Source: Tubulanus polymorphus (Eukaryota > Animalia > Nemertea). Taken from it: DNA of 64,000 nt. The position numbers and the translations under genes were made by a program. The notes under the pieces are model-generated. The model did not search any database, had not been told where the DNA came from, and saw nothing but the letters and a program-made list of their open reading frames with translations. Shown in pieces: positions 37,931-64,000 of the stretch (position 1 is the stretch's first letter; each line of letters opens with the position of its first letter). The stretch is from assembly GCF_964204645.1 (NCBI RefSeq), contig NC_134026.1, positions 29,050,150 through 29,114,149 on the forward strand. Direction: 5' to 3'.

Positions 37931-38733
37931 TGATATCTTAGCGCGCTGCAACTTAGTTCTAAGTCTAGCCCTTACGAAACTCTGTAGAAATATCTTAAAT
38001 GATAACAAAACTCATTTTAAGACTAAATGTAACAGAAGTTCACTGTAGTTTAAGCGAGTTGTTGGAATATTAGGAATTTAGGTATTTCAATTTATCGTTA
38101 GCTTCACAGTTGACCTAAGCGTAGGGATATTACTAAGTGGAGGGTGCGGGAATACAGTGATCCCTCAACCTTTGGCTATTCAGCGACTAATCGTCGAAGC
38201 TGACAGTTGTGGCTAGCGCGCTCTCTCATCTTTGCCGACATTCATACTTTGGATTATTGTAGGCTATCGGGGATGTACTTTAGTTATCGTCTTGAATTAT
38301 CGAAGACATTGAATATAGTATTAACATAATTGGTAAGTAACTTTTTTTCTTTCGTTTTCCATGTCAGAATGCCGGCATCCAAATTACATAAAATAAAATA
38401 TTCGCGAATTGGGCGTCGTAATTATGATGTCTTTATTGTCATTCATTCGTCGCGTCTGTTATTTTGTACATATATAGCTCGTATGTATTTATTCTTTGAA
38501 ATAATGATATTAATTGCTATTTAGTACTATTTACCACCATACGGTTTTCTACCCACGTGTCACACCTACTCAACTGTCAAACTTCCAATATGGACGCGCG
38601 TATACATATGTCTGATAACGATTTATTAACGTTATGTTTCGTATTTATTTTTCAGTTGGCTGACACTTCTCAGTACACATCTTGCAATAAGACAGTCACC
38701 CTGACACATATCAATACGAAAAGCAATAGGATT

Positions 38734-40626
38734 ATGTTTGTGAAAGTGTTGAATGCGTCGAATTTGCGTTCCAACTGTACCGTTAAAATGAAGCCGAAAT
38801 TTCAAACTGCCTCGAAAATCAAAACTGAGGATTTCGATATCGTACAGCCGTTTTTCTTCGAAGATGATATGGACGATGATTTTTACTCTACTACTGTTCC
38901 GCTGCCGAGTGAAGATATTTGGAAGAAATTTGAACTGATCCCGACGCCACCGCGTTCACCAACCCGCGACGAGCAAGATTGCGTCGATGGATACCCCTCT
39001 ATTGCTTCGCGCTCTACGATTCAAAAACTAAATCTCGTTTCCGAAATTCTCGACGATCCGATTTCTCAAACGCAAGTTTTCAGTGACTTCTTTCTTCAAA
39101 ATGCGGTGGCTAACTCACCGTCGAATTCTCTGCGATCGAATCTGATACAGGATTGTATGTGGTCGGGTAAACACCAGACGGGAGACGACGACACGGACGG
39201 GATCGTCAATTGTGAACCGGAAGAAGATGTTAAAAACGAAGCTGTCAAAGCGCCATCAGCTGATATAACTCCGAATACAGCTTGTGTCGATCCGACAACT
39301 GTCTTCCCTTACCCAGTTAGCACTGAAACTAAAAGAGAAAAACGTAAAATCATGAAGATAGATCGTGTCATAACCGGTAAGTGACAGTTTATCCAATCAA
39401 ATTTATGTTCAGTGCAGTTCAGCAATTCATTTTATGGTAATATTTTCATTGAAAAATGTAGTAATTAAATTGTAAAACAATCGATAAAATGTTATTTATT
39501 ACTCGGGGTGTCTTAGTTACCGCAAAAATATTATTGACCTTAACATCAATATTTTTTGTGATGTCATTGCATAAGAATGAGTAAGCCAGCTAGATATACA
39601 TGTAAAAACGCTCAGAGCACGTGTATGCCATGCTGTTAATATAATCAATAGGCTGTTACTAGGAAATGGTTGGCGGGATGGCAGCGTTCCAAGAATGTCT
39701 GGCACAACCCAGCCATGTCGCTTGTAGTGCAGAATGCTTAGCATTGAATATTGAGGCCTCTGAGGGGCTGTTGTAGATGAGCGCGGCAGTAGAATAGCCA
39801 TACTCTGACGTGGAGAATAGATCAAGATAAAAAGTTAAAAAACCCACTTAAAACCTTTAAACCCATATTATACACAATAGGGTTAAAAGCGAATTTGAAA
39901 ATAATTATTTCAAGGACACAACCAACGTATCGAAACTCTAGAAACCATCACTACAATATACATCATAGATCTCGGCACTGACTTTCATTTCGGTTAAATA
40001 GAATTTTTCCTTTGTATTTTTTAGATGATAGTGACGAGGAAGCTGAAGAGGAAGAGATCGATGTTGTGTCGGTTCCTGTCCCGGTGAAACGACCGATTCA
40101 AGTAATTCTAACATCGCAGTCGAAACCGAAAGGCCAGTCGGTGATTAAACCTATACCGCAACTAGCATTCGCTCGAAGCGACACCAGTCCAATTCCACAT
40201 CCGATTGACATGCATTCGTATTCGTTAAAGCGTAAAGCGGTTTCGATGCCTTCATCTCCTCAACCTCATTCGAAACGTCTACGCCACGAACTAACTGTCG
40301 ATTTACGAAAAGCCGTCCAAAAACTACGCGTCCATCCGGTAAATTCGAGTTCGGATTCGGAGGAACCGCACAAACGAGCTCAGCACAACGTCTTAGAACG
40401 TCAAAGGCGGACTGATCTGAAGATGAGTTTCTTCACGTTACGCGATTTATTACCGGATTTACACAAAAATGAACGCGCCCCAAAAGTCGTTATTCTTCAA
40501 CGAGCGGCTGAATACGTGCAAAGTCTTACTCGTATGCACAAACGTCTGCAAAGTGAACTGCAACAGGAGGAAAATCGTAAACGCAGGTTAATTCAACGTT
40601 TAGAAGAGTTAGATCGGACGTTTTAA
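38734..40626 (+). CDS. MYC: Myc proto-oncogene family bHLH-ZIP transcription factor
   Basis: Coding exons 38734 (or 38788)-39376 and 40025-40626. Motifs: MbI PSEDIWKKFELIPTPPRSP, MbII LIQDCMWSG, CVDPTTVFPYP, EEEIDVVSV, and bHLH-ZIP KRAQHNVLERQRR...APKVVILQRA. Confidence 0.98.
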
Positions 40627-43465
40627 TGCATACGTTATTAGTATATGTAATAGTTGTGCATTTATTTAGTGGCTGCCAAAGTTTTTGTGATAATGACTTC
40701 ATGTTGATTGATACTCTCAGGCTTGACTAATACCTCAATGACGGCTAACTCCCGGGTATGGTTTGGAAGTAGAGGCTCTGTGCTGTAATTGGTAACCAGT
40801 TGTTCAACATAGAAAATACCTTGAGCGAAGAATGATTTTTGCCATGAAACATATCATAAAGGAATGTGTAAAGGGAGTTGTACACGGTAGTACAAACAAA
40901 CATCAATGAACCAAGCTAGGCTTTAAATATATCAGTAGCTAGGGATTGGAAAACCCCTTAATTATATATAGATGTTGTCAAAATGGTTACAGGATCATTT
41001 GCTGCTTTGTCACAGTTACACAATCATATAGTTATAGCGATTATATGCAAATTTATCTATGATTTAATATGCAATTTATATCATAAATTTACTATTAGTC
41101 TTTAAAATGGTAACAAGTGTCTATCTTTCATGCTAATCTCTAGGTGTATTTCCTCTATGGTGTTCAGGGAATTATTAATATGTCATCCCACTGTAGTCGA
41201 AAATGTAGCCGAGAACTGAAAATTAAAGTTCATCGAAAAAATGTATTCATTTGTAACACAAATCCATGAAATTAACTGATTAATTGGCAGCAGTTTTAAG
41301 AGAGCAGTCGTTTTACTGCTCAATTTGAAAAAAAAAAGACTTAACAAATTTTCAATGCTCAAACTGCCAGAATTGTTTTGCGTTTTTTGTTTCAATACTT
41401 TATTGATATTTTTTTTGGAAAATGACAAAAAGGTTTAAAAATATATTATAAAAATATATATATTATACATGAAATTTTGTATATATTATTGAATTGGTGC
41501 TGCCGTACGCTATGTGTATATTTAGTATTATGTAAATGATGGTTGAATTAAATTGCGCTTGATTAATATCACTTCAAATAGAGTTTGTGAAACAGATATT
41601 TTATGTATGGTTTTATGCTAAATACGCTTAAAATCAGGCATTTGGATTGTAAGCAGTGAAAGCCATACATAGTTCATTGCAAAGGTGATTTCATCAAATC
41701 AAATAAATTCTAAAAAAATAGTACATCATGATTATATTGTAAGATATATAATTGACCTAATCAGAAAAAGAACTGGTTGGATTTATAGGAGAGGTGCCCA
41801 TTGACACAATATGCATTTAATATGGTTTGCCTTGATTCATGAAATTAAAATTTAATTGAAAAGGGCTGTATGATACTGATGATTTAAATTGGGAGTTTTG
41901 GTGGTTTTCAGTATCATCTGACCAGTATAAAAAGATATAATGGAATATGATAATTTGTACACTATCATTGATCTGTAATCATGCAAGTTGTAGTGTTATT
42001 GTTTGGCTGATGAATATAAGCTTAGCATTTTGTTGAATACGGAAAATACACTCGATCTTCCATTCTGGAATGGAAGGATTAATTTAATATATATATCTGA
42101 AGGAAATGATATGATAGTGTAGTAATAAAGCTCATAACAAACTTGAGAATCTACTTGAAAGTGTTTTTATGCGCTGTAAAACTATGCATTTGATTTGTTG
42201 GTTTTTATTGAAACCTAGGTTTTGTTCCTAGATTGATATATTATTATAATTAGAGTGTTGAATATTTTTCAGTATTTTTATAGATAAAATGCACTAAAGA
42301 GGGCTTTTCCTTGCCAAAAAAAAAAAACATTTTACACATTTTGATACAACTCTATTTGAAGTGGCTTGGGGTGCAAGCCAGTATTGATTATTGTATGTAT
42401 AGCCTTTCCACTATCTGAAATCTAAAACACTTGGTTTAGTTTAGATATGTAATACACCTTTGACAATAGTTAATCGATTGTGCACAGTTTATTACTATGC
42501 TGAAGCTTTGTTTGCCCTTAGCTTGATTTCTGTTGATGGTTTATTTTTTGTTGGAATCAACAACAAGATCAGATCACACATATATCAAGCTCATGCTTAT
42601 GAGTTCCTAATTTTTGGTTAAATCGTTACCTCGTCATTAATAAACCCATGAAACCACTAACATATAATGAATGGGTTCCTAGCTACCCCTCATACCTCAA
42701 GGTTAATTATCTAAGGATTGTTAAAACCCTTTCAGGTTATCAACCCTACCTAATATTGACTCCCCAGGGTTTCATTTTCAAGCAGGCATAGCTATTCAAA
42801 TGATGTCTAGGTACTTTTGAGGTTCTCGATCTTGTTGTTGTTTCTGGTACCTTGTGTTCATAGGTTTGATTGTATGTAAATAGATTTTTATTTTACCGTA
42901 ATAGCTCTAATAAGACGACGACTATACTAGATAATGTCAGTCTTTCCTCTATCATGTATAATCACAGATTGCTCTATCTTTATTTTAGTTCACGAAAACT
43001 TGAACAGAACGTTCTTGTTTTGAAGATTTATTATTAAACAGTTTTCTTATATAAGTAAATATATTCTTGTTGTTGCATTTTTTTATTCCTCTCACTTGAT
43101 TTCGGAAGCGTTAAAAGGAAGCAGTCGCTGGAACGAATGAATGAAAACTATCAGCCGAGTTAAACCAGAGACCATTGATCATATTCTTAAAAAATCCCTC
43201 CATCGGAGAGCTTGGCCTGGTCTAAGTCATTATTTTTCCCATGGGTCCAAAATTGAGAATAAATGCTTTTTCCTAGTTTTGTCTTCAAATGAGCTGTGTA
43301 TGCTTGGTTACTGATGGGATAAAGCTTTGATTTAGGACCCTGGTTACATGAAACGGTTCGTAAAGCACTACCATGATCAAATGTCGATGGACCCCGGCTT
43401 TTGGCAGCCCGCGCTGAAAATTTATATACCGTCACCTAGCGCCATCTATGCATTATTATTCCAAG

Positions 43466-46400
43466 ATGTCAGCTCCCATGAAAATTTTACCACGCTTACC
43501 CGTGGTAGTTATTTTAGGGGCTACTGGCTGTGGAAAGTCGAAGTTAGCTATAGAATTAGCCAGGAAATTTAATGGAGAAATTATAAGTGCTGATTCAATG
43601 CAGGTTAGTGATTTATTTCGTCCATCATTTGCGTATCAGGCGTTTATTAGTGCAGTAAACAAATTCAAATTAAAAGATCAAATTTATTGATGAAAGTGAA
43701 ACTGACAGTTTGATATTGATACCATTGATTGTCAGTCTTGGGATGGATAAGTGTGAAATGCTTTACTGACAAGTTGTTGCGATAATGTTTATAATCATTT
43801 ACAGGTCTATAAAGGTTTGGATATAATCACAAATAAAGTGACTGCGGAAGAACAAGCTCAATGTCGTCATCATATGATTAGTTATGTTGATCCGCTCACC
43901 ACCAAATATACGGTTACTGAATTCAGAAACAAGGCACTAGCTATTGTATCCTTATTCGTATTATCTTATGGTATTCACAAGAGGCCATTTGTTCAGTTAG
44001 ATATATTGTATACTTACTAGAACTACTGTGACCTATCACCTGATAATGATATTGTGGTTCCATAGAATTCGTTATCAGTGCGTCCTTGCAGACAAGGGAA
44101 CCCTTATCAGCTTTATAGTCGAAAAGATAAAAAAATTATTTCACAAAATTTGATAAAAATCTGAATTAGTATTTTATTTAAGTTCATGGATATGGAATGA
44201 GATTGTTGTGACATCTGACATTTGAGTATTTTTTCGATACATCCTTCGACTTAACGGAAATTCAGTTCATCAGCCAAAGTAAAGGGGGTATATATGCTGG
44301 AATAACAGAAAAATGATTTTGGAATTTTCCAAAAATATCAATCAGGAAAAGTTATTAGTCAAAGTAAAGGGTACGCCAGAATTCCGGAAATATGATTCCA
44401 GATATTTCCGGGAAACAATGGAGGCAGGAATACACCGGAATTATTTTCCGGGAATTTCTTAATCCTTACTCTCTTAACTCTTAACCCCTAAAGCGTAACC
44501 CTCTAAATTCTGGAATTTGATATATCAACTTTAATGAAATTCCGAAGGGAGAAACATCATTTTTCAAGAAAATTCTAAAATACCTATGATTGAACTCGAT
44601 TTGATTTGAAATATTTTTCTGGAAATGTCCGAAAATATAAAAAATGTTGGATGTCGAAATGGAATGACTATTATCATTGTTAGGCCTTTCATGTCGTAGG
44701 TGGCCTTAACTTAAGTTTCAGATTGATAAACTGATTGCTGATGAGAAATTACCAGTGATAGTCGGTGGAACAAATTATTACATTGAATCGGTTCTCTGGA
44801 ATTTTCTAGTCGATAAAAAGGTACAAATATTCACTCACAATTATTCTTCTCTCATGATAATCTCGGGTGTAAAAGGTTTGAATTGCATAATATCAAAGGA
44901 TGCTTGTGTGATTTGACCTGATTTAAGCATTGTTTCGCGTAGAAATTGGAATTTAGGAGGACTGCAATACGAGATGCAATCATACTGTGATTGTAGTTTT
45001 TTTCTAATGATTATGATCTACTCGACACTGAATACAAACAATCTCATACACACACCAATAGTATTGATATCAAGTAGTCTTAGAAATTCAGAAAGAATTT
45101 TTCAGAAAATCAAGCAATTCGGTAATTTAAGATGTGGTTGGACCACACAAAATTGACGTTAAAAAGTAGGCCTATATCCTTGTTGGAAAGTTGCGTGTGC
45201 CTGCTTTCTTTCACTGTAATCAACACAGTTGGCAATTACTCCGGTTTACAGAATTCTTATGGTAAGCTGTGAGAGTAATAGTGGGCTAGTTTCTGGACAG
45301 TGGAGTCTGTTATGAGTCAGCGACAATAATGAGCCATTTACAGTCAAATGTGGATCAAGCAAATAGTATCGTAAATCCACAGATCTGTCGGCTCTGTCTG
45401 TTAGAGTGATTACTCTGAGGTCTACTTATAAAAAAGAAGCATCAGAGAGGCTAGTTATTCAAGTGTGGGAGGTATAATGTTATGTCAGAGATATTCTATC
45501 ACTCTTAGACTGAAGGGAGGTGTCTTTGTTGTCTATCAGGGTCAGCTAGTGTAATGTGATTATGATGGCAATGAGAACTATTGCGTCTGGGGATCTTGAA
45601 CTCTGTATGAACTCGAATGTTGTTTTCTCATCTGTAAAAAGGTCCTCTGCTTCTGCTGCTGCTGCTGGTGCTGGTGAAGTGTGTCTCAAAATCAGCCGTT
45701 CCAATTTCGTTTCCTGGAAAATTGACCCAACCTGCTACGAATAATTCATGAGACAATTACTCATTGTGCGGCAGCTCTGGAGATATCAGATGCTGCTGAT
45801 TGTCTGGGGTTAGGGAAAGGAAGGTACAATTTGCGATGTATCTATGATATTGATATGAAAAAAACAAGATATGTTGAATCAGGTTGGCACCTGTTCCAAA
45901 ACAGCTGTTCAAGGTCTGATGAGTAGGTGCCTAGATTTTATTCAGCATTAATCAATGAAAATATTAGGTCATCGGTTAAAATGTAATATGATATTCAAAA
46001 CTGATACCATCGGATCGATTCTGTGACTGAAAATGGATTTAAATGCGTCGATACGCTTTGAGCGTAGTTCAGTCCAAATACTTCACTGGAGACTTCATAC
46101 ACTCAACAAACTAGAGAAGATAGATATCGTTTAAATGTTCGTGGAAAAGATGATGTTAGTTTTATCTTTTCTACTGTAAATATTTTAAGTTATTAGTAGT
46201 CAGTCTGTCAGATGTCAAAGATTAATCACAACCTACTCTTCAATGCTTTATGTCTGGGTTTTAAGTCTTTTTGAGATACATATCTTAGACGTTGGCGTGC
46301 AAACGAAATATTCTATTCAGCAATTCAATTTGTATTTTATGACGATTGTGATTCGACTAAAATGCAGCTAAAAATGATACAAATCCTTCAGAAATACAAT

Positions 46401-48721
46401 CTATTGAAACTAACAGGGAGTGACTTCCTGATTAGTAAAAACAGGTCAATCACTTAGAAACATATACCGCTTTACAAAGAATGTTAATCACATTCAGAAA
46501 AAACACTTGTCACAATATTCGATAACAGACCCCCAACAAATAGCAGTATTTACACGGTTGGAAATGAGTTCTTACTGGAAACGAGAACCTGTTAAAAAGT
46601 GGTCAATTTGACCTTTAATGTTTACTTTCCTCACTTCAGTAAAACCACCAACATCCGTACATGGAAAATACCTGCTGAACTTTCTTTGTAAGACGACGAA
46701 ATTGTATACCAGTAAAGAGAAGCCTAATTATGAGATGCGTTCTTTATTTTCATTCGAGTTGTGAACTGATAGGTTACTATCAGATATTTTAAGGAATCAT
46801 TCATCCTTGAAAAATGCATGTAATTTTTAATCCTAGAATGGTGAAGATACTGATGGAGGTGATGATGGAAGTGAAGAGGAAAGAATTTGTAACACAGGTA
46901 ACATGCTATTAGTGTATAGTATACTCGCTAGATGGCGACACCTGGAAGGTTGATGTCTGTAGTGAATGAAGTTATCTCATCTACATGTATTTAAATTTTC
47001 AGAGAATGCTAATTCTTCAACGTATGATGATTTGGATAACGTGACCCTGCATAAAAAACTGATGGAAATTGATATAGAAACCGCCCAGCGTTTGCACCCA
47101 AATGATAGACGTAAAGTTTTAAGGTATCAAACAAAAAAAAAATTCACTCAAAATGAGATTATTTTGGCACAAAAATGAATTCATTGCCAACTAAATTCAG
47201 AGCTTTGGAAATCTATGAACATCATGATAGACCAATGAGTGAGATATTAAGCGAACAGCGTATTCGTGCTGAAGATAAAAGTGGTCCATTACGTTATGAG
47301 TCGCCTTGCATATTTTGGATACAGTGTGAACAAAAAGGTTTGTAAAAAAGCTCACTCAAAGTTTTCAGAATTTCGATTAAAGTCAGAGTAACATTATAGT
47401 TTGGAAACTGGTATTTGTTGCAGTTTTGGACGGTCGTTTGGATGATAGAGTTGATGAAATGATAGAAAAAGGTTTATTGAATGAATTGACTGAATTCCAC
47501 CACAAATACAACAGAGATAGACTGCAACATAACCAGTATGTTCTTTCCTCGCAATATTCCTTGATATCAAAATATACTCTCTAAATTGTATATTGAATGA
47601 TTTTTGTATTTCACAGAGATGCAGATTACGAAACTGGCATTTTTCAAAGTATTGGATTCAAGGAATTTCATCCTTACCTGATGTTAGATGATCAGGGCAG
47701 ACAGACATACGACGGGCAACAATTGTTAGAAGATGGTAAGTTTGGGTAAACTAAAAGAAGCTTGTGTGTAACTAAGATTCTCTAGTTTCCCACAAAATTG
47801 GTTATATAGATGAATATTTACCAGTAGGTATTTACAACTCATTTAATAGAACTCAAATCAAATTTGAGTTCTATGCTAATTTGTATTTATTGTAGGCATT
47901 GAGCGATTGAAACTTGTGACGAGACGTTATTCAAAGAAGCAGCAACGCTGGATCAAAAACAGATTCCTTAAAAGTAAAAACTCTTTATAGATAGATTTAC
48001 ATTTTTTACTTCAATTGAATACTTATATAAGCTGTGTGGTGTATTTTAGGGCCTGGACCCGGAGTACCATCAGTGTATGGACTGGATTCTACTGATCCAG
48101 TGAATTGGACTGAACGTGTGAATACACCAGCTTGTAACGTATTACAAGCTATACTGAATGTTAGTTTCAATCACTTAAAACTGATCAATAAATCTAAGTT
48201 TTTAAGTTTGAAACGGTTAACATGTTTATCTATTGTTTATCGTATAGGGTGATGTACCAGCTATATCTCCCCTGTCTTGCGATGAAGATCGAGATGAACC
48301 TGACTATAACATATGTACAGTTTGTGAGGGAAGAGTTTTTGTCACAAAATATCAATGGCAAGGTACTGTTCATATAAACATTCCCTGATTAGGACTTACT
48401 AATTATTACTAATCTTATTACTAATGACTTACTAATCATTTCATGCTAAAGTTGAAAATCAAAAAACGTATTTTCATCAAATAGATTTGAACTTATCGAG
48501 TTAAGGAAGATTTTTTCATGCAAACATTATTTGATTGCAGCTCACATGAAAAGTCGTAGACATCGTCATATGGTTGGACGTTATCATCGGTCAACTAGTG
48601 AATCTTCCCAGGGAGAATCACCTTCAGAGTAAGTGCCTTAGAGCGACATAATTCATCTTCATCTACTGAATCTTACTAATCAAATGTTAATAATCATTTC
48701 AGGATTGAAGACAAGACCTAA
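43466..48721 (+). CDS. TRIT1: tRNA isopentenyltransferase (tRNA dimethylallyltransferase)
   Basis: P-loop [22 protein letters not shown]|[62 protein letters not shown] and a C-terminal zinc finger CTVC...HMKSRRH. The stop is at 48721, or at 48632 if the last intron is retained. Confidence 0.95.
43946..44721 (+). other. U12-type (minor spliceosome) GT-AG intron in TRIT1
   Basis: 5' splice site GTATCCTTA; branch point CCTTAAC about 11 nt before the AG at 44721; no polypyrimidine tract. Confidence 0.85.
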
Positions 48722-49540
48722 ATGATTGGTGTCAAGTCAAAGAAGAAAGGTGCTACTCTTATCTGAAGAAAATGTCTAATTTGCTTGATAAGTCTTAAAG
48801 TTGATGATATGATCATTCAAGATATTTTCTTTAAAGATGTATTATTCTACTGTCTGCCGATTGCGCACGACTTGAACTTTGTCCAAATATTTTCTGAATT
48901 TGGGTTCGGTATTAACTACTGTGATTATTGTAAAGGTTTTAAGGAATGTAGAGATTTTTTAGAGGTTCTGTTAGTTTGGATCCTATGTTTATGTGACCTC
49001 GACTGATGTAATAAGGCTTTAGAAATGAGATAAAAAGAGTATTTTTATTCTCGAATGATAGCATTTTTTCAGGAGCTACCCAAACAACAGGAACTTTAAA
49101 GATAAACAATATATCCATCAGCTGTTATAATTATGATTAATTGCAGTTACAAACAACAAAAACACTGGTGAATTCTCAACCAATTATTGAATTACCGGTT
49201 TAAAGAGAAACAACAGTGTATCGCTATTGCTTATTGGAAAATTCACAGGACAGGACAACATAATAACAACCATAGTTAAAATTTCCAATTCTTAACTTTA
49301 ACAACATTTGATAATACTTCTTATTTGATAAATAAGCAGCTATGATATATTTAGTTCATTGTAGTCCTTTGACCAAAGCCTGAAATGTTCTGCATCTAAT
49401 GTCAACTGCCATTGAGATCATAGACTTAATTATAATGTATATACATGTACATATATATAGTAGAGCTATGAAATCCTGTAACATTTACACAATCTAGTTT
49501 CACACTGTCCGATAAACGAATGAATCATAGTGATTTGATT

Positions 49541-52500
49541 TTACTTGAAAAATAATTTTATGAACACATCAGGAGAGATAGGTGTTGAACTCGGACCTTT
49601 GTAATTCTCATCTGGTTGTAATGGGCATGGATGTCCATGTGAGGCCCAAAAAACTATGTTACAATGACAGCATTGATGTAACATAACAGCATAAATCTCT
49701 CTTGAGCCGTACTTCCTGAAATCATTAATACGTATTGAGTATAGATCCATATGTATTTTTCTATTTGTCATATTTGAAAATGCTTTCACGATTATGTTCA
49801 TACTTCGCTAGTTTTTTGTAAGCGTATTTCCAGTTGCAATCGTCCAGGTATTCACCGCGATTTAAACCATGGCAAATTAACTGATTGTCGTCAAAATGGA
49901 AGTAACATAAATTTCTCCACAGTATCTGCTCCTCGGTTAACATGTATAGACTAGTTCGAGTTGATCCAGTGTTCAGAATATCAACGTGGTCGGTTAGACG
50001 GTGTATTATACTACGTACTAGTTCAGTCGGTAGATCAGTTAGCGTTATACCTTCATCTTCTCTCTATTTAAAGACAATTTGTACATTTTTTACCCTACCA
50101 TATCTGGTAGAGGGACAGATATCTTAAAGAGGGCTGATAACACAAACCTCTTTCAGTTTTATCGTGTTGAATCTATGCTCCATTGACTCTGCTAGTTGTT
50201 TATGTTTATCCCACAACATTTGACTACCGATATGATTAGTTTCACTCTGTACTAGGGCAAAGTTTAAATCATTCAATAACTGATGCATCGTGTGGAGATT
50301 ATTCTGTGAATGGATTACTGAAAAACAATTATGCCTCTCAGAATACAGCCTCTTGAACCTCGTTAATATGATTCTGACGAAACCCATTTAATACAATGGT
50401 TTCGAGCATGTCCCGGCTAAGATATTTTATATCAATCGAGCTTTGGATAGTATGAAACCCATTCACTACGTCATTTTCACTTTTGCCCAAAAGATTTTTA
50501 TTAATGAGGTTCCACTGTATTTATGTCATTGATTATAAACGGGTTTTAAGCTTATTTAGAATTTTATGATGATAATTTGTTGCATTTACCGGTGATTGAT
50601 ATGAATCATGTACATACCTTGTTGCAAAACCTCTTCTAATATAGAGAATATTTGCCTTTGACATGTTCCACTTAGGTCACTGTAATGTTTAGTCAAGATG
50701 ATTTCTACCACCTGGCAATAGAATAAGTTCATTTGACATAAATTGCTTCAAGAAGATATTGCTTTAGAATTGATGATTGTAGATGATACAAGTGCTCCTC
50801 AACTTCGTAGCTTAATACTGTACATACTTTACAGGCATATTTGAATCTGCGAATATCTTTGACTGCTGAGTAGAAATCTAGACGACTCAATGCATCGCTT
50901 AAACTTACTAAACATACTCTCTGAATAATAAACAGCCACCGTATATTCTAACATGTATATTGTGGTAATTGTTAAATTGACGTTGCATTTTAAGCGATGT
51001 TCATTAAGATCATCATACTTCACGAGTTGATCCACGGGATATATGGACATGGGGTTGAGGTGATTTCTTCTCCATACAATCATCATATGTTGTGTGAAAT
51101 CGTATTATCCTGAAATTTCAAATGCATTTTTTTTATTCTTTGAGAGTTAATACGACTATGGCGTATCTTTGTCAGTACAAAATATTGCTTAAGCTATGGT
51201 ATGTGATATAAAAAAAGAAAATGAAGGTACAGTCAACTCCCGATATACTGCCCACATCAGTGCAGAACGATCGGGGGTGTTTTACTTTGTAATTGTATTG
51301 AGATGTACATCGAGAAAACCTGGCGGTAAATGGGAGGGCAGTATATCGGGGGTTGACTGTATATTTGTTCTGGATAGAAAATCTTCCAGTTTTACTAATG
51401 ATAGTTGGACCACACATTTTGTATCTAAAGTTTAGTATTTGATGTATTTCTGTAAATAGATAAATTTCACTGTATCAATTTTGTGAACTTTGAAATAAAG
51501 TTTTGATGGCATTGATTACCAACAATTGTGTTTATGAACGATTCTTTCATCTGAGGATTGATTAGAGACAGTTCCCCTGCTAGGCTGAAAACACAATTTC
51601 CTCTAAAGAATTAGTTTAATATACCAGTAAGAATACCACATATGTTGTGTATTAGATCGCCTTGCACCAACGGTTCTCATCCTACCTGTCTTCATTAGGA
51701 ACATCATTTGAACTAGCTTCATTTGGCTCGATATAACATGCTAATTTCCAGGTCCCTGTACGAGATTTAATCCATTTCAGCCCTGGACACCTCCAATCCT
51801 GTCCGATATATGGCATTCTTGCCGGTAACCACACAATTCAGACCAAATTAAATCAGATGGAAAAAGAACCCTCTCTCAGTTTCATAGTAAATCCTCTGAA
51901 GTGTTCACACACGAGGAACGTTTATACCGAAGTGAATATTACTAAAATTTTGGATGATATGACACTGCTGCAAGATAAAGAAATTTGTTTTCGATGCCCT
52001 TATAGGGTATTCATTAACTAGGCACCTCAATCACTGAATGTGAGCATTTATATTCCATATAAGGAAACTTGTCAATAGCGTCTATTTTTAGATTATTATG
52101 GCATATGGGTATAATGTGTTGCAATGATTCGAATGAGCATTGATCTTTATAGTATCCCAAAACGCGATATCAATAAGAGGAGATTCATGTAGAAAATGAA
52201 TTCTATTTTTGATGACAGTCAATATTATGGATGATTGCGCAACAATTCGCAATCTATGGTTGCTATGGATACAGTACTGTACAAATTTCCAGCACAGTAT
52301 CATTATCAGTGGTAAGATGAATTCAGCTTCAACTGCTATATTCAATAGTACGGTAATAGCAGGCCTGCAATGTATTAATCTGAAATCAGCGCATACCAAT
52401 TGAATAACCGATACAGGTGTGATGATGTAAATCTAATTAATTTCTTTCAATTGTCAATGAGTAAACAATATTGTTACTTTTATAGGCTTATTAGATAGAA

Positions 52501-55409: not shown

Positions 55410-58400
55410 TCATAATCTCCTCATAGAGAGCAGTGAACTTGGTTTTTTATCACTAGATGATTTTGTGGTCTTCTTGCTGTGATTGTCTTTACTAAAACAT
55501 TTCCACAGTCGCAGAGTTTCATCAGCCGCAGCTGATAACACCATACTGCCATCGGGTGACATCGCTAGATGTAACACACGCGACGTGTGACCTGAAACAT
55601 ACAGATGATTAAAGCATTAGTGACTAAATGAAATGCACATAAAGCAGTGATATGTCAGTCATTACCGCTTAACTTACCAGTTAATTCTGTGACCTTCTGA
55701 AGGGATGGATATTTCCAGATGATTAGTTGATTATTTGCAAATCCATGACTAGAAACGAGTTCTCGGTGTTCCTTCGACCAAAGAATAGAACAAACCTAGA
55801 AAAACACAAGTATAAAGAAATGAATATGGCATCCATAAATCGGTGTTCTGTCAGATCGGGAAACCAAAATTCCCTGAAAATTCTCAGTGAGTTTCTTTTA
55901 TGCCACTCATCATCCCCAACTTTCTAATTCCCTGACTTTCAAGAAGTCAGAATTCCAGAATTCCCTGATTTGTAAGCTTACTACAGACGCAGTTAATGAT
56001 CGAGCAAACAAACCTGAGATTGTGTATCGACATTCTGTATATTTGTACCAGTATTACAATTCCAGAAACGAATGTGACGATCTGCTGTACCACCTCCACT
56101 CGCTAGTAAACTAGGCTGCCACGGACACCAAGCTAACGCCTGCAAAATATACACATATATATGAATGATTTAAACGAGACTGCCATCATCATATCCACTA
56201 GTATCTAGAGGTATCATAAAGCAATCAGCTGGACTGATGATATCTCTTTGGGATGTCGTCCTCACACAATGTGTAATTGTTTAACAACTAGTAAACTACC
56301 AGTAAAACAATACTGTTGGTACTGTGCTGAAAGCAAGAGACCTCTCGCTACTGACAGCAATACTTGGAATTTGGATGAATTTAAGGAAAAATCTAAGCAT
56401 TTTGATGTAATTTCAGGTTCAGAAAATATTACTCTAATCAAGAGATCAAGAGAAATATAGAAGAAGCATGAACTAATGAAGTACCTTGACTGCAGCGAGG
56501 TGATCTGTAAACACGTGTTGAGGTTGATTTTGTCCCATCGTCCAGATATTGAGTATATTATCGTTACCACCTGACGCGAGGTAACGTCCATCAGGAGACC
56601 ATCTCAAACCACATACTTCCTGAGTATGACTAGACATCGTACTGATGTGATGTTGAGCAACTCTTACGTCGTGATTATGAATATTACCACTCCGGGAACC
56701 GCTTAAAAAAAAAAACTACAATCTTAGTACGTTCAACATTCGAACTATCGGCGATGAATAATCATAAATACACTCGATAACTAACCTACTGAGAATATGA
56801 GCATTCCACGATAAAGAACCAACACGTCCTGCATGTCCCCCCATTGTTCTTAACTTCTTTGTATTGGCGACATCCCAAATCTGTAAAAACAATTCAACTG
56901 CGGTTAAACGAATAGAAGTTTGAAAGAAGTTTCAGACATTTTGCTCAAATTTCAAGTACATTTATAAGCATTTTCCATTTAGGAGTTTTTAAGGAATTGA
57001 GAAGTGGCAAGGACACCATGAAGATTATCTATTAGATTGATGAGACGGCTATCGGCTATGAAACAGCATTCCTCATTTTTACCTGGACATCATTGTTACT
57101 AGTTCCAACTGCTAAGAAATTTCCTTCTCGAATCCAACTAAGCGATGACACGTAATCTTCATTGTTATCCATAGACATGAGTTGAGTTATATCTCCACAT
57201 CCAGCGTTCCATAGGTAAACGCAATTACCTAGAGCGACTGCTAAGTGATTATTTACTGACCAGTCCAACAAATTCAAATCTATTTAAAAGAATCAATAGA
57301 AAATTAAAATCTTATCAAACTTTTTCTGCGAGGCTTTTAAGAAAAATACTGGTATTTTCTGTGTATAAGACTAGAAAAATCATTTACATTAAGGCAATAA
57401 CTTAAAATAACTTACAATAATCATCAAGTATATCAGGAGCATCAAGTATTCGTTCGGGAACCTGTGGTATGTGACGTGTAGATTTTTTAACTGTTGATTG
57501 AGGGGTTTTAGTTTGAGACGTATATAAAACTTTCATATTATTAGAACAACCTGAAAAACAATAATTATACTTCAAAACACGACTGACGATATATAATGAA
57601 AATGATTTCGTCAAAGTCGAATTTAAGCCAAAAATAGCGATGAGGTGTTGTGAAATTTAGATCCAACCATTCTCGATGTATGGAATTTATTGGAGTCAGG
57701 AAAAGCTGAGCAGCCTATTGTCCGTTATTTAATGCTCTGGGGAGGAACTTTCAAAACATTTTCCAATTATCTCTAGCACTTTAGGTTAGTCAGCACTGCT
57801 AAGAGTTTTACAAGCTTTTGAGCGAGCAACCGGCCCCAGATTTCTTACCTTCAGGAGGTTGCGGAGCTTTACTCTTGTACGATAAAATCTTATTGTTCAT
57901 TGAATCGCCGTTGAGATTATTAGACATAATTCGTTGATACATCTGTTTCGATGGACTACTCGCTTCAGGGTCGACGTTCTGTTCATTTTCCTGCTGTACG
58001 AGTTTATAATGAGCGACGTCGTAAAGTGAAGATCTACGACTCGGTATAAATCTGTCGCCGCTGTTTCCCGGAGTTTTATTCGGCGTTTTGTTTCCTTTCG
58101 ACGGTGTTTTTGAGTTTCCTAAACATAAAAACGAAGAAGCATCGATGAGTATTAGAAGCTGGTTATTACCGGTTTCTGATCCAGTTTTAGTTAAGAATTC
58201 TTTCAATGACTTAATCCCGGAGAGCCATATCCAGATATTCCCCGATTCCGGATCTGTAAGAACCCTGTTAAACACTGTCAAGTGTAAATCCAACACTAGC
58301 ACGATTATCTTGCAAACAAACCTTGTTTTCTCGGTGTTTTTGATCCGCCTGGAGTTTTATTCACGCTCATGTTATTCGACTTGACGGGACTTCTCAAGTT

Positions 58401-58556
58401 GTATCCAACGCTCGTATTATTCGCCGACATATTTAACGACGTATTAGTGGAACTTTCGTGTAGTTTTCGTTGCCATCTCATCATCGGACCTCGCGTCAAT
58501 GGAGTGTCCAATTTCAAAAGGCTGCTCATGTCATTTTCGAAGTTAAAATGTGCCAT
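55410..58556 (-). CDS. CDC20: Cell division cycle protein 20 (fizzy), APC/C activator
   Basis: [23 protein letters not shown]-box [35 protein letters not shown]40 repeats and [15 protein letters not shown]...[12 protein letters not shown]. Confidence 0.96.
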
Positions 58557-59324
58557 CTTTAATCTCGCCGATAAGCTTAATTTAGAAGAACGATGGCTTT
58601 GAGTATTGGCTACAGTTTTCCTATGAATGAGAATCAATGTAAAATAATTTTTTCAAATGAGTGATACAAATTTTAGTAAAAACAGAGATTGAAACAACAT
58701 ATACATCTCACACATACATGGTGCTAGCAGAGATTGACACTAATAATATGAATCTAGGCTACTACTGAATTTTACTCTGTGTTGACAGCAATGTTTATAA
58801 GGTGAACAATGATCTGATCAGTCATCACTTCGACTGATTTGTGCTCACAAACAATGTAATTAAAATGACACCGATTAATTTTCTATAGCAACTAATCACA
58901 CAACTAATTTCTGGTGGCGGAGCACACTACTTAACACTTTGTCTATAATAGTATAAGGCCTATCAGGACTTGCTTGATTTAGTCGGACTATCAATAAATT
59001 ACCAATTTAACAATTTTGATTACCATTGCTCTAGACCCCAAATATTGGCCTGGCAACGTAACGAACTTGAACTTGAACAGTTCCATTCTTAAGATATCGG
59101 TTTGTAAGAAATTTGTTTTGAAAGTACAAAGAAAAGGGGCCATTTATATAGGCATCATAGGACTAGGGACATTTCTGCCCTAAATATCATGAATTTAAGT
59201 AATTGCAAGATAATCGATTCATACAGAAGAATAAACAACTATTGTATAAACCATTTTTACCTTTTTGTATAATTTGTGATCTGTGAAATTCAGGATGTAA
59301 GACGATTTTTCCGTCGTCTTAAAA

Positions 59325-59495
59325 CAATCAACAGTTTAAAATTCGCGGATCCGGAAGATTGTCGATTGGGCTCGAGTCCCGAAGCTGTCAGGTTCAAATG
59401 CTATCGGGTTCGAATCCCGCGTAGCGCAGGGATCTGCGACGTGTCAATCGTGTTTCAATCAGTTTCGATTCCCTAAAATCGCATCCAAGATGGCC
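59325..59495. promoter_or_regulatory. Bidirectional CDC20/GPX7 promoter with CDE-CHR-like and CCAAT elements
   Basis: Minus strand carries CCGCG-AAT-TTTAAA (59348-59335) and TTTGAA (59398-59393), with CCAAT at about 59365. The CDC20 5' UTR exon donor is near 59260. The region is CpG-rich. Confidence 0.5.
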
Positions 59496-60494
59496 GCGCC
59501 CATGGAACATATCGGCGCTTCAAAATCTATGATGTACTTCCTTGTTTTTAGCGTTATTTTATCAATATTTGATGTGACAGTTGTTTTTGGAAACGGTGAT
59601 GAACGACTGAGGCCTGACGTCGATCCTACATCGAACCATGTAAATATTTATTCGTTTGAAGTGAGTGATATCGATGGAAATTTCATTTCGTTAGATCGTT
59701 TCAGAGGAAAGGTAAGTTGTTATTTGCTGATTGAAATGATAGATTTAAAGTTTAACTAAGTTGGGCACCGGCCCTAAGGTGAAAATTGTTGATCTAATTT
59801 TTGATAGCTCTTGGTGTATTTTAATTGTATCTGCTAGCTCTCACTTTATTTATTAAAGATTCTGATATCTTCATCATTGTTATGTTATATGTATTCCAGG
59901 TTTTGTTAATGGTTAATGTTGCGAGTGAATGCGGTTTCACTGATGGACATTATAAGGCGTTAGTTGATTTACAAAGAACTCTTGGAAAAACAGGGTCTTT
60001 TTCAGTTTTAGGGTTTCCTTGTAATCAATTTGGCGCTCAAGAACCAGGAGTAAGTACTTAGTCAAAGACATTATGATAGTTTATAATGAAGATAACATTT
60101 TAATTTTCTGTGTTGCTATTTTGTAGACAAATGAACAAATTAAAAAATTCGCTCAAATCAATTATAAGGTTAATTTCCCAATGTTTGCCAAGATTAACGT
60201 CGTAGATGGTATTACTGTAGCACCATTGTGGAAATATCTAGCTGGTTAGTCATCTTTCATCTCTTATTGGTATTCAATTCTTTCATCCACCTTTGTCCTT
60301 ATAAATTTTACTATCATTTTTCAGAAAAATCTGGAAGTGCTCCTCAGTGGAACTTTTGGAAATATCTGGTGAGTTCGGATGGTGAAGTGTTGCAAGCGTG
60401 GGGTCCTTGGAATGATTGGAATACAGAAATCATTCCCGTTATCAAAGCAGAAATTGAAAAAGACCATGTGAAACATAATCCGGATGAACTTTAG
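59490..60494 (+). CDS. GPX7: Cys-type ER glutathione peroxidase 7/8
   Basis: Signal/TM segment, VNVASECGFT (Cys rather than Sec), LGFPCNQFGAQEP, PQWNFWKYLV and a C-terminal PDEL ER-retention-like signal. Exons 59490-59711, 59900-60049, 60127-60244, 60325-60494. Confidence 0.92.
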
Positions 60495-60585: not shown

Positions 60586-60822
60586 ACAGGGTCCCTACGA
60601 TTCCTTAAAAACTCCTTCTAAACAGAAATTGCAGAATTAATAGAAAGAATTAAACAGAAAAAAACCACCGAATTAATGGTTTACCCGAGATGAACAATAC
60701 AGAATTTACAGGAGTCTACAGTAATTGGGATATGAAAGTGATGTGGACAATTCCTCAAAATTTGAAACTTTCTCCTTGAAAACTCTTTATATTAGAGAAT
60801 GACTGATCTGTAGGGACCCTGT
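60586..60822. mobile_element. Non-autonomous element with 13-bp TIR (CAGGG-type, hAT-like)
   Basis: ACAGGGTCCCTAC ... GTAGGGACCCTGT; no clear target-site duplication. Confidence 0.55.
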
Positions 60823-61094
60823 ATAAACTTAAGTTGTAAAAGGTGCGTTTGTGGTAAAACTGCTGTCATTTCTTCCACTGCCATGATAAACAAAATAGCA
60901 ATTATACATATTTTTTGTACTGGTAACATATCTTTTATGAGTTCAAAGCTAAGTTATCTACAAATCGATATGTACTTAAATGAATAGTTTGGTAATCAAG
61001 TTCTATGATAAACAACTGTGCAATACAGCTTTCCGTTTAAAAATATATCTCATTTATCATTGATAAGAAAAGAGTTCTTCAAATTCCTTCGATA

Positions 61095-61200
61095 TTCTGA
61101 CTAACACTTTTACGTGGCCACAGTTCCAGTGCACCAGTCCTATACGGTTTCCCAGTGCCCTTTCATAATAGTGACATGGGAGTAGAAGTGTACATCAGAA
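61095..61200 (-). promoter_or_regulatory. SECIS element 2 of SELENOP (type II-like)
   Basis: Minus strand: GTCAC-TATT-ATGAA-AGGGCACTGGG-AAA-CC GTATA GG-ACTGGTGCACT-GGAA-CT-GTGGC. It shows the AUGA/GA core, an approximately 11-bp helix II, apical AAA with a mini-stem, and a long outer stem. Confidence 0.85.
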
Positions 61201-61533
61201 AATTCTCGACCATTATAGCAATTGATTTTAATGTTACAAAATAAGAAATTTTTAGAAAAAAGATTTATCAATTATTGAACACCACCTTAAAATACCTCTC
61301 ACAAATGTTCTATGATAGTTTGAATCTGCAAATTATTTAAAGATGTTATATATATTTACAAACTTGGCACAGTAGTGGTGTCCGTTAACGTGGAGAGTTT
61401 ATCTCGTGTGGTGGTAAAGATGTTCGAAAAAAGGATTCACATTAGTTTTCTATCTACAGTAATATTTACAAAAAAATGATCACAAATGTGTTGAATTCTG
61501 TTGAATACAAGGCTAGTTCCTCATTCATGTTAA

Positions 61534-61614
61534 TGGCTTGTTTCATTAATAGCATCCGAAAGACAAAGACCTGAGGTTTTATTCATCTCACTTCATTGAT
61601 TAACAAACAAGCCA
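61534..61614 (-). promoter_or_regulatory. SECIS element 1 of SELENOP (type II-like)
   Basis: Minus strand: TGGCTTGTTTGTTAAT-CA-ATGAA-GTGAGATGAAT-AAA-ACC TCA GGT-CTTTGTCTTTC-GGAT-GCT-ATTAATGAAACAAGCCA. It begins about 60 nt after the TAA stop. Confidence 0.85.
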
Positions 61615-61671
61615 CAAAATGAAAGTATTTGCTGATCATTCTATGGCATGCCTAGTTGTAAGAGATTGACT

Positions 61672-63962
61672 TTAATCCTCGCCTGGCTTTTTTAAGAGGG
61701 GGAATTGTCAGTATCATCTCTGTAGGGAATTTGACTGTCACTGTCAGCTTTTTAGCGAGCCTCCAGACTGTCACTGTCAGCTTTGTGGGGAACTTCCAGA
61801 CTGTCACTGTCAGCTCTGTAGGGAACCTCCAGACTGTCATTGTCAGCTTTGTGGGGAACCTCCAGACTGTCACTGTCAGCTTTTTAGGGAACCTCCAGAC
61901 TGTCACTGTCAGCTCTGTAGGGAGCCTCCAGACTGTCATTGTCAGCTTTGTGGGGAACCTCCAGACTGTCACTGTCAGCTTTGTAGGGAACCTCCAGACT
62001 GTCACTGTCAGCTTTGTAGGGAACCTCCAGACTGTCATTGTCAGCTTTGTGGGGAACCTCCAGACTGTCACTGTCAGCTCTGTAGGGAACCTCCAGACTG
62101 TCACTGTCAGCTCTGAAGGGAACCACCAGACTGTCATTGTCAGCTTTGTGGGGAACCTCCAGACTGTCACTGTCAGCTCTGAAGGGAACCTCCAGACTGT
62201 CACTGTCAGCTCTGAAGGGAACCACCAGACTGTCATTGTCAGCTTTGTGGGGAACCTCCAGACTGTCACTGTCAGCTCTGAAGGGAACCTCCAGACTGTC
62301 ACTGTCAGCTCTGAAGGGAACCACCAGACTGTCATTGTCAGCTTTGTGGGGAACCTCCAGACTGTCACTGTCAGCTTTGTAGGGAACCTCCAGACTGTCA
62401 CTGTCAGCTCTGTAGGGAACCTCCAGACTGTCACTGTCAGCTCTGAAGGGAACCACCAGACTGTCATTGTCAGCTTTGTGGGGAACCTCCAGACTGTCAC
62501 TGTCAGCTCTGTAGGGAACCTCCAGACTGTCACTGTCAGCTCTGAAGGGAACCACCAGACTGTCATTGTCAGCTTTGTGGGGAACCTCCAGACTGTCACT
62601 GTCAGCTCTGTAGGGAACCTCCAGACTGTCACTGTCAGCTCTGAAGGGAACCACCAGACTGTCATTGTCAGCTTTGTGGGGAACCTCCAGACTGTCACTG
62701 TCAGCTTTGTATGGAACCTCCAGACTGTCACTGTCAGCTCTGTAGGGAGCCTCCAGACTGTCATTGTCAGCTTTGTGGGGAACCTCCAGACTGTCACTGT
62801 CAGCTTTGTAGGGAACCTCCAGACTGTCACTGTCAGCTTTGTAGGGAACCTCCAGACTGTCACTGTCAGCGCTGAAGGGAACCTCCAGACTGTCACTGTC
62901 AGCTCTGTAGGGAACCACCAGACTGTCATTTTCAGCTCTCTTCTGACTGTCATCCACTCTCTATTGAAAGTTGATGTCCATTTTCCAGATGTTTACAATG
63001 TCAGGAATCAGTGATATTGGGTTTGACATTATTACAGACGCAAGAATGGGTCGGTGTACGTGGTACCAAACCTTGACATGTACAAGAGTTTTCTAGCTGA
63101 GAAACTGATAATTTACACTTACAATGCTGTCCAGTATTATTGCGAATGCTATGACAGCTACAGTAATTTGAAGTATATGACAGTTTAGGGCAAAAGCACT
63201 CTCTTACTGAAAGACTGTGTTTATGGTGACACCTACATTTACTGACTAATGATACCATATTAGTAACTGTGTGTGCTAGGTATAAATGTGGACAATGACA
63301 TCGATATGGTTTCCTTAATGGCACGATCGGAGTACATGAACATTTATCTAATATCTCTTGGTTTGGGTTGTGACATCTACATGTTCGTTGTCATTTCTGC
63401 GGTACTACCTGAAGATGATGGCGATGGGCCCTTTTAGATCTTCTGCGTTGACTTGAGCCGCGCTACAAATACATAACAGATTTTTTCTCCTGAAGAACAT
63501 ACCGGATAGAACAAGCAAAATCAAAATCAAATTCTAAAATCTACCTCACTACAACGTATCCCACACAGGTTTCTGTGACGGTATGTGTATCTGATAGCAT
63601 TCCGTACATAGTTTAAATGTAACCAACTCCCTGGATATCGTATGTGATAAGTAAGGCGACCACATCTGAAAACCAAGCACAGATTTTCAATCTCTGATAT
63701 GATTATGAGTTAGTGTTTATTTGTTGTTTTTATGAGTGGCTGTTGTATAGATACTTACCGATCATAAATCAAGAAGTCGTCCTTTTGTCCACCAATTATG
63801 TTCCAAATGTTATTTTCAGGTGTGGCCTGGTATGTAGGCATACGTGTCCTTTTTTGTAACCGTCCAAACTGTTGGCGAGCATGATTTAGTGGGGAATTGA
63901 TGATGATAAATTTGATATCATTGGCTCCTCGAGATACATAGAATCTTCTCAAGTGTTCGAAC
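61672..63962 (-). CDS. SELENOP: Selenoprotein P, 3' part; the N-terminal UxxC exon(s) are expected beyond the window. Last exon has 79 in-frame UGA codons
   Basis: Exons 63962-63759, 63665-63545 and 63462-61672. SelP_N motif IWNIIGGQKDDFLIYDRCGRLTYHI...YVRNAIRYTY...CGIRC, then a CxC-rich region and UxU repeats up to TAA at 61674-61672. Two SECIS elements lie downstream. Confidence 0.93.
61737..62936 (-). repeat. 33-bp coding tandem repeat (36 full units plus a partial unit) encoding UQUQSGGS(L/P)QS
   Basis: Minus-strand unit: AGC TGA CAG TGA CAG TCT GGA GGT TCC CTA CAG. The unit count was taken from the 11-aa periodicity of the shadow ORF at 61731-63014. Confidence 0.95.
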
Positions 63963-64000
63963 CTGAATAAAGGAATGCGCGATGTTAGGTCGAAATCAAT

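Follow-up and report, generated by a model that had tools for sequence, protein, structure and literature searches.

Sec-rich invertebrate SELENOPs from annelids, Nemertea and molluscs were reportedly described by Baclaocos et al. in 2019 (J Mol Biol). In PMC8744743, annelids, ribbon worms and molluscs are described as having a SELENOP particularly rich in selenocysteine (Sec), and the bivalve Elliptio complanata is listed with 133 Sec; the count for this species is also given as 132 in the available text of PMC8744743, PMC8230778 and PMC13134290. An oyster SELENOP with 46 Sec appears in the available sections of PMC8230778, and those of PMC8310308 and PMC7435645 cite the 2019 invertebrate study. 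For lampreys, UGA counts of 162 and 139, a modular tail and two SECIS elements are given in the excerpted text of PMC13134290. The same excerpts accept UGA-only stops together with two SECIS as an argument for lamprey SELENOP2 and state that the SELENOP tail evolves fast. Other routes to more Sec are covered in the portion of PMC3473315 that was available. PMC12822975 calls annotation of the SELENOP tail difficult and mentions a procedure for selenoproteins at RefSeq; therefore, the gene of Tubulanus polymorphus may already be annotated there. Our literature search, which had subscription journals and supplements outside its scope, returned no paper on Tubulanus polymorphus SELENOP.

We analyzed a window of 64,000 nucleotides from the nemertean T. 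polymorphus (the whole stretch of DNA, positions 29,050,150 to 29,114,149 of contig NC_134026.1), in which a spliced, expressed SELENOP gene lies on the minus strand. Its 80 UGAs are extreme but within the published SELENOP range (up to 162), and the gene sets no record and brings no new mechanism. Several comparisons can be made with the described systems. First, as far as the cited excerpts on Sec-rich invertebrate SELENOPs go, Sec richness had been reported for Nemertea before and the record lies above 80, whereas the tail of the T. polymorphus protein is encoded by a 33-bp tandem array with 91% identity and no indels. In addition, lamprey SELENOP2, as it is described in the excerpts of PMC13134290, has an enlarged C-terminal region built of modules, UGA-only stops and two SECIS in common with the T. 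polymorphus gene, but it is a vertebrate paralogue, carries CxxU instead of UxxC and was probably expanded independently. Finally, human SELENOP (10 Sec) has the same domain order and two SECIS, but eight times fewer Sec.

The first coding exon within the window (63759..63962, minus strand) matched the thioredoxin-like SelP_N domain (profile 48-116; Pfam E 1.3e-10, 41.5 bits), and the second (63545..63665, minus strand) matched the end of SelP_N (profile 118-154; E 3.6e-8, 33.5 bits). Both exons score above the curated Pfam SelP_N cut-off of 23.2 bits, in support of the SELENOP identity that the earlier note had claimed. A 93-nt GT-AG intron (63666..63758) separates the two exons, and an 82-nt GT-AG intron in phase 0 (63463..63544) separates the second from the last exon; both introns are in phase. 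When the first SelP_N exon was used as the query of a full HMMER search, 54 relatives were found at E<=0.001. Ten of these were looked up, and the informative names were all SELENOP or SelP_N. A word-index search with the SelP_N exon gave no relatives (2 candidates). The last exon matched 0 Pfam families at E<=1, and the vertebrate-type C-terminal profile, which we take to be the one that Pfam calls SelP_C, was not matched. As judged by its sequence, the T. polymorphus tail is not classed as vertebrate-type.

The transcript evidence consists of contigs of public runs from two studies, six of which contain the stretch. The runs carry no RNA or DNA label; given their splice joints, X2, X3 and X4 appear to be RNA, and X1, with its unspliced contig, appears to be DNA. 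Four runs were placed on 62905-64000. The joints 63462/63545 and 63665/63759 were seen in X2, X3 and X4 (two samples, two studies), in which the introns had no contig cover, and X1 spanned both introns unspliced. Cover of the locus in X6 was patchy, and X6 does not enter the evidence. The spliced contigs of X2, X3 and X4 extended 203-255 nt past the window's first exon. This overhang, of which 30 letters were read by hand, continues in frame as AGT-TGA-GGG-TTT-TGT, that is, S-U-G-F-C. The overhang peptide is S-U-G-F-C-L-T-Q-A-S, and the homologue P0009 starts with M-C-L-T-Q-A-S. The exon carrying U-G-F-C is the 5' neighbour of 63759..63962 and lies beyond the window end. An N-terminal UxxC had merely been expected, and it is present in the overhang of the RNA-type contigs. 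With the 79 TGAs of the last exon, its UGA brings the total to 80 UGAs, which agrees with the roughly 80 Sec codons proposed from the window. At the other end of the gene, one contig of X4 (record 21, 60714-61815) contains the 3' part of the array, the TAA and both SECIS-like hairpins. RNA-type contigs cover the two ends of the array (down to 62905 on one side and up to 61815 on the other), and short-read contigs collapse it.

We recounted the codons of the last exon (63462-61672, minus strand). Among the 597 codons, there were 79 TGA, 0 TAG and 1 TAA, and the TAA is the final codon (61672..61674, minus strand), the sole non-UGA stop in the frame. The in-frame stops across the other 596 codons are UGA only, and the earlier count of 79 TGAs without TAA or TAG in the spliced exon was reproduced exactly. 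Before the array, the first bases of the TGAs are at 63393, 63003 and 62952. Two TGAs belong to a lead U-K-U unit (62934 and 62928), 72 are in 36 U-Q-U units (62901-61740), and a pair closes the tail (61716 and 61710). The base that follows the TGA is C in 77/79 cases. Since the 72 TGAs of the array are copies of a single unit, they cannot be counted as 72 independent observations. The 175 non-repeat codons before the array contain no TAA or TAG, for which the base composition gives a P of about 2.6e-4. The other two minus-strand frames have 8 and 16 TAA/TAG. Three read variants change an amino acid (63278 L>Q, 63318 L>I and 61757 S>L), and none of them makes a stop.

The start of the last exon (62935..63462, minus strand) holds 3 TGA by codon count and was present in contigs of 4/4 runs examined. 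It opens with an Arg/His-rich stretch, in which 16 His fall within the first 170 residues; a basic/His-rich segment likewise follows SelP_N in SELENOP. Nine C-x-C motifs and one U-x-C precede the array, spaced by 12-14 residues with a single gap of 21. The U-x-U motifs, one every 11 residues, begin 23 residues past this series. The U-x-U units keep the spacing register of the C-x-C motifs, and thus the Sec pairs continue the Cys-pair register.

The tandem array (61708..62934, minus strand; 76 TGA) is built from the U-K-U unit, 36 U-Q-U-Q-S-G-G-S-L/P-Q-S units and the closing U-Y-U. Tandem Repeats Finder reported a period of 33, 36.5 copies, 91% matches and 0% indels for 61733-62937. We extracted 35 complete units, which fell into 13 types. 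The Leu/Pro unit variant is commonly seen (11 units), and the array has a partial higher-order pattern of three units (99 bp). These patterns suggest how the tail may have arisen. It may go back to an ancient series of C-x-C modules, spaced by about 12 residues, in which a single distal module would have turned into U-Q-U. In-frame multiplication of the U-Q-U module, about 36-fold, would then have followed through unequal crossing-over or slippage, in part as the 99-bp triplet. The unit sequences point to in-frame amplification of one U-Q-U module as the probable route of tail growth. The locus would then be a clean case of a gain in SELENOP selenium capacity, in which Cys pairs gave way to a mixed pair and to Sec pairs, followed by in-frame amplification into units that are 91% alike.

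The earlier note had also called the unit unfamiliar from described SelenoP sequences. A protein search with the last exon found matches at E<=0.001 for 0/7991 scored candidates (lengths 327-1043); most databases cut such proteins at UGA, and this null result is weak evidence for the uniqueness of the unit. We examined 11 SelP proteins of two clusters, picked as W-rich. In 9/11 there were 30-31 [C/W]-x-[C/W] motifs at a spacing of mostly 9-14 residues, and W-Q-W was the most frequent of them. W is found at the UxxC position of P0033; therefore, W there probably stands for UGA. P0033, P0038 and their cluster members resemble the T. polymorphus protein in having SelP_N followed by [C/W]-x-[C/W] motifs 12-14 and later mostly 9-13 residues apart. 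They differ in their diverged modules, which lack a repeated spacer, and each tail has about 45 W, a part of which may be genuine Trp. If W is UGA in these homologues, the U-Q-U core is probably common to other SelP tails, and the homogenised 36-unit array and its spacer are what is distinctive to the T. polymorphus gene. The claim of an unfamiliar unit thus holds for the S-G-G-S-L/P-Q-S spacer and the near-perfect homogenisation, which were not found elsewhere in these comparisons, but not for the U-Q-U core, which is probably not new. As a separate observation, the SelP entries P0033, P0038 and P0063-P0073 seem to have been translated with UGA as Trp and have W-rich tails of about 45 W. Entries of this kind could be a source of more Sec-rich SELENOPs.

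The 3' UTR (60714..61671, minus strand) is covered by record 21 of X4; its end is approximate, as the deep contigs end near 60714 within a dispersed repeat. Two SECIS-like hairpins had been proposed 3' of the TAA, and both were recovered, on one contig and with the AUGA/AAR/GA motif. SECIS-like element 1 (61545..61604, minus strand) consists of AUGA, 12 nt, AAA, an apical mini-helix and GA, and scored 24.6 bits with Rfam SECIS_1 (E 0.0049 on 141 nt). SECIS-like element 2 (61117..61175, minus strand) consists of AUGA, 12 nt, AAA, a mini-helix and GA, and scored 17.4 bits (E 0.45). Both are below the Rfam gathering score of 35, and SECIS_1 was the best Rfam match in each stretch. Both elements have the SECIS features given in the available part of PMC8704476, namely AUGA, 12 nucleotides, AAA and the GA partner. 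Element 1 folded better than 198/200 shuffles (z -2.62). A 64-nt piece of element 2 adopted the SECIS shape with a z of only -0.11, no more stable than shuffles. The SECIS pattern had 2 matches in the 64 kb, both strands included, and both were in the SELENOP 3' UTR on the gene strand. Only 1/2000 UTR shuffles gave any pattern match, a figure that flatters the elements because the pattern thresholds were picked after the elements had been seen.

Other candidates and features of this region were recorded as well. Eight SECIS candidates from a loose pattern were rejected, as were three pieces at 61400-61550 and one at 61250-61310, the folds of which were no better than shuffles. An AATAAA at 61583-61578 (minus strand), the sole one between the stop and 60714, falls within the SECIS 1 apical loop; deep contigs run past it. 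Its use would curtail SECIS function as well as the UTR. The dispersed repeat at 60586-60822 has 13-nt perfect inverted ends and many loose ends in X1. It is MITE-like, and the deep SELENOP contigs stop inside it.

We consider it likely that the 80 in-frame UGAs are read as Sec under the two SECIS-like hairpins, and the product would store or carry about 80 selenium atoms. If the established SELENOP mechanism applies, SBP2/eEFSec bound to the SECIS would first recode the UGA of the UxxC, and the tail UGAs would then be recoded processively. Part of the ribosomes would stop early and yield shorter forms, as in the SELENOP family. The product is predicted to be a selenium store or carrier with 80 Sec and roughly 770 residues (an estimate). 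Sec insertion at the UGAs is thus proposed by analogy with known SELENOPs, and secretion and selenium transport are assumed on the same basis. The available text of PMC8704476 gives an efficiency of 10-25% for Sec insertion at an ordinary UGA, and therefore a full-length product needs very high processivity.

This generally low efficiency at single UGAs is also one of the arguments for a more modest product. Only the U-G-F-C UGA or the first few UGAs could be recoded, with translation ending at 63393, at 63003 or early in the array; most of the array would then be repeat sequence that is not translated, within an mRNA for a short SELENOP with little selenium. The SECIS scores below the gathering cut-off and the descent of all array TGAs from one unit fit such an mRNA too. 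However, it would not account for the 175 unique codons beyond the first tail UGA, which are free of TAA and TAG (P about 2.6e-4), for the CxC/UxU register that continues into the array, or for the synonymous bias of the UGA frame within the array itself, which is described below. The gene also has two SECIS, as multi-Sec SELENOP has. We regard the short product as improbable. Under the favoured reading, in which the whole array is decoded, the mRNA would present 72 UGAs in a near-identical context, spaced regularly by 2 and 9 codons, and would thus be a natural ruler for processive UGA recoding. Ribosome footprints, or a series of truncated products, could reveal the drop-off at each codon. 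The idea that the array RNA holds a structured recoding element was unsupported, since six units folded with a z of -1.69 and 9/200 shuffles were equally good.

The number of units could also be questioned, because the assembly of near-identical 33-bp units is difficult. A multi-Sec SELENOP might be real, with an array that is over-expanded in the assembly or varies much among individuals, and the count would then be well off 80; we give this a slightly smaller chance than the short product. Three repeat contigs were matched to window multiplicities of 6, 4.7 and 10 copies, by our own assignment. Their depths in X1 were 198.8, 140.2 and 317, or 33, 30 and 32 per copy against 25-36 in the single-copy flanks, with the caveat that the depth of a contig does not equal a copy number and that X1 could stem from the very sample that was assembled. 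The per-copy depths of X1 are close to the flank depths, and therefore the assembled array length looks right. The close agreement with the assembled multiplicities argues against over-expansion, as does the ordered variation among the array units, which contain no indel. In X4, the per-copy depths were more scattered (145, 277 and 172 against 182-235 in the flanks), which could mean another allele; copy-number variation of the array is only hinted at. These observations fit an array that is correctly assembled and present in RNA.

Given that two further frames, one on each strand, are open across the array, a frame test was required. In the UGA frame, 6/11 distinct unit variants were synonymous, compared with 20/99 of the changes that could occur (P=0.0055 by permutation, or about 0.03 when six frames are allowed for), and the other 5/11, including the common Leu/Pro, were non-synonymous. 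The remaining five frames had P values of 0.15-0.99 for synonymous bias. No unit variant fell in the TGA columns, which by itself is not significant with 11 variants. The UGA frame put forward earlier is thus the only one of six with synonymous bias, and the SelP_N splices join to it. Translation of the array in the stop-free minus-strand frame (a T-V-T-V-W-R-F-P-T-K-L repeat in a 446-aa ORF, 62992-61652) or as a plus-strand gene can hardly be right, even though both frames cross the whole array, since 1/11 variants is synonymous and 10/11 are non-synonymous in each of them, and the stop-free minus-strand frame has 17 stops upstream of the array in the same exon, no splice joint leading into it in the contigs and 0 passing stretches among its Pfam matches.

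The Pfam matches on the two open repeat frames were set aside as repeat artefacts (0 passing stretches). On the plus strand, 61676-62116 encodes a Cys-rich P-P-D-C-H-C-Q-L-C-R-E repeat in a 146-aa ORF, which is broken by TGA further on and had a P of 0.15 for synonymous bias. This Cys-rich repeat is probably a mirror of the SELENOP frame.

The fold of the array was predicted by AlphaFold2 from the single sequence without an alignment, with Cys in place of Sec and without a control fold. For 16 units, the pLDDT was 78 and the pTM 0.67 (five models, 45-78). For the whole exon, the pLDDT was 70-79 over most of the array and <50 in the Cys/His part. Each unit forms one beta-strand and a turn in these models. 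Neither model had a Foldseek match at E<=0.001. VIA-align gave many beta-solenoids, with matches to curli CsgA (Z 14.1, rmsd 8.0, 170 aligned) and a bacterial antifreeze protein (Z 12.3, rmsd 2.0, 144 aligned), which would indicate only a generic beta-solenoid. On these models, the array could be a selenium rod, in which each 11-residue unit would form one strand with its two Sec on the same face, the 36 units would stack as a beta-solenoid with ladders of about 72 Sec, and the load would change two atoms at a time through copy number. We hold this to be a tentative and rather unlikely model. If true, the rod would be the first defined fold for the SELENOP selenium-storage tail. The regular repeat also brings structural work on a Sec-rich tail within reach.

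Several neighbouring genes were seen in the window. A multi-exon Cys-type glutathione peroxidase gene with a VASECG motif lies tail to tail with SELENOP at about 59493-60494 (plus strand); we take it to be GPx7/8-like. In X3, one unspliced contig spans 59300-60739 with a depth about 4% that of SELENOP, possibly as antisense read-through from SELENOP. Exons at 57808-58652 (minus strand) are head to head with the peroxidase gene. They presumably resemble the CDC20 N-terminus, and the one exon scanned had no Pfam match. A Myc exon (39982-40623) shows, along 93% of its length, 100% identity to a Tubulanus polymorphus protein, which places the window in that nemertean or a very close relative. Within 38500-50063, Myc is followed by the exon 43418-43690, presumably tRNA isopentenyltransferase-like, and by a further exon, which we take to be F-box. 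In P0075, a gene model of a bivalve, Myc is joined to PF01715/PF01745 domains, which suggests that the same genes are neighbours in a bivalve.
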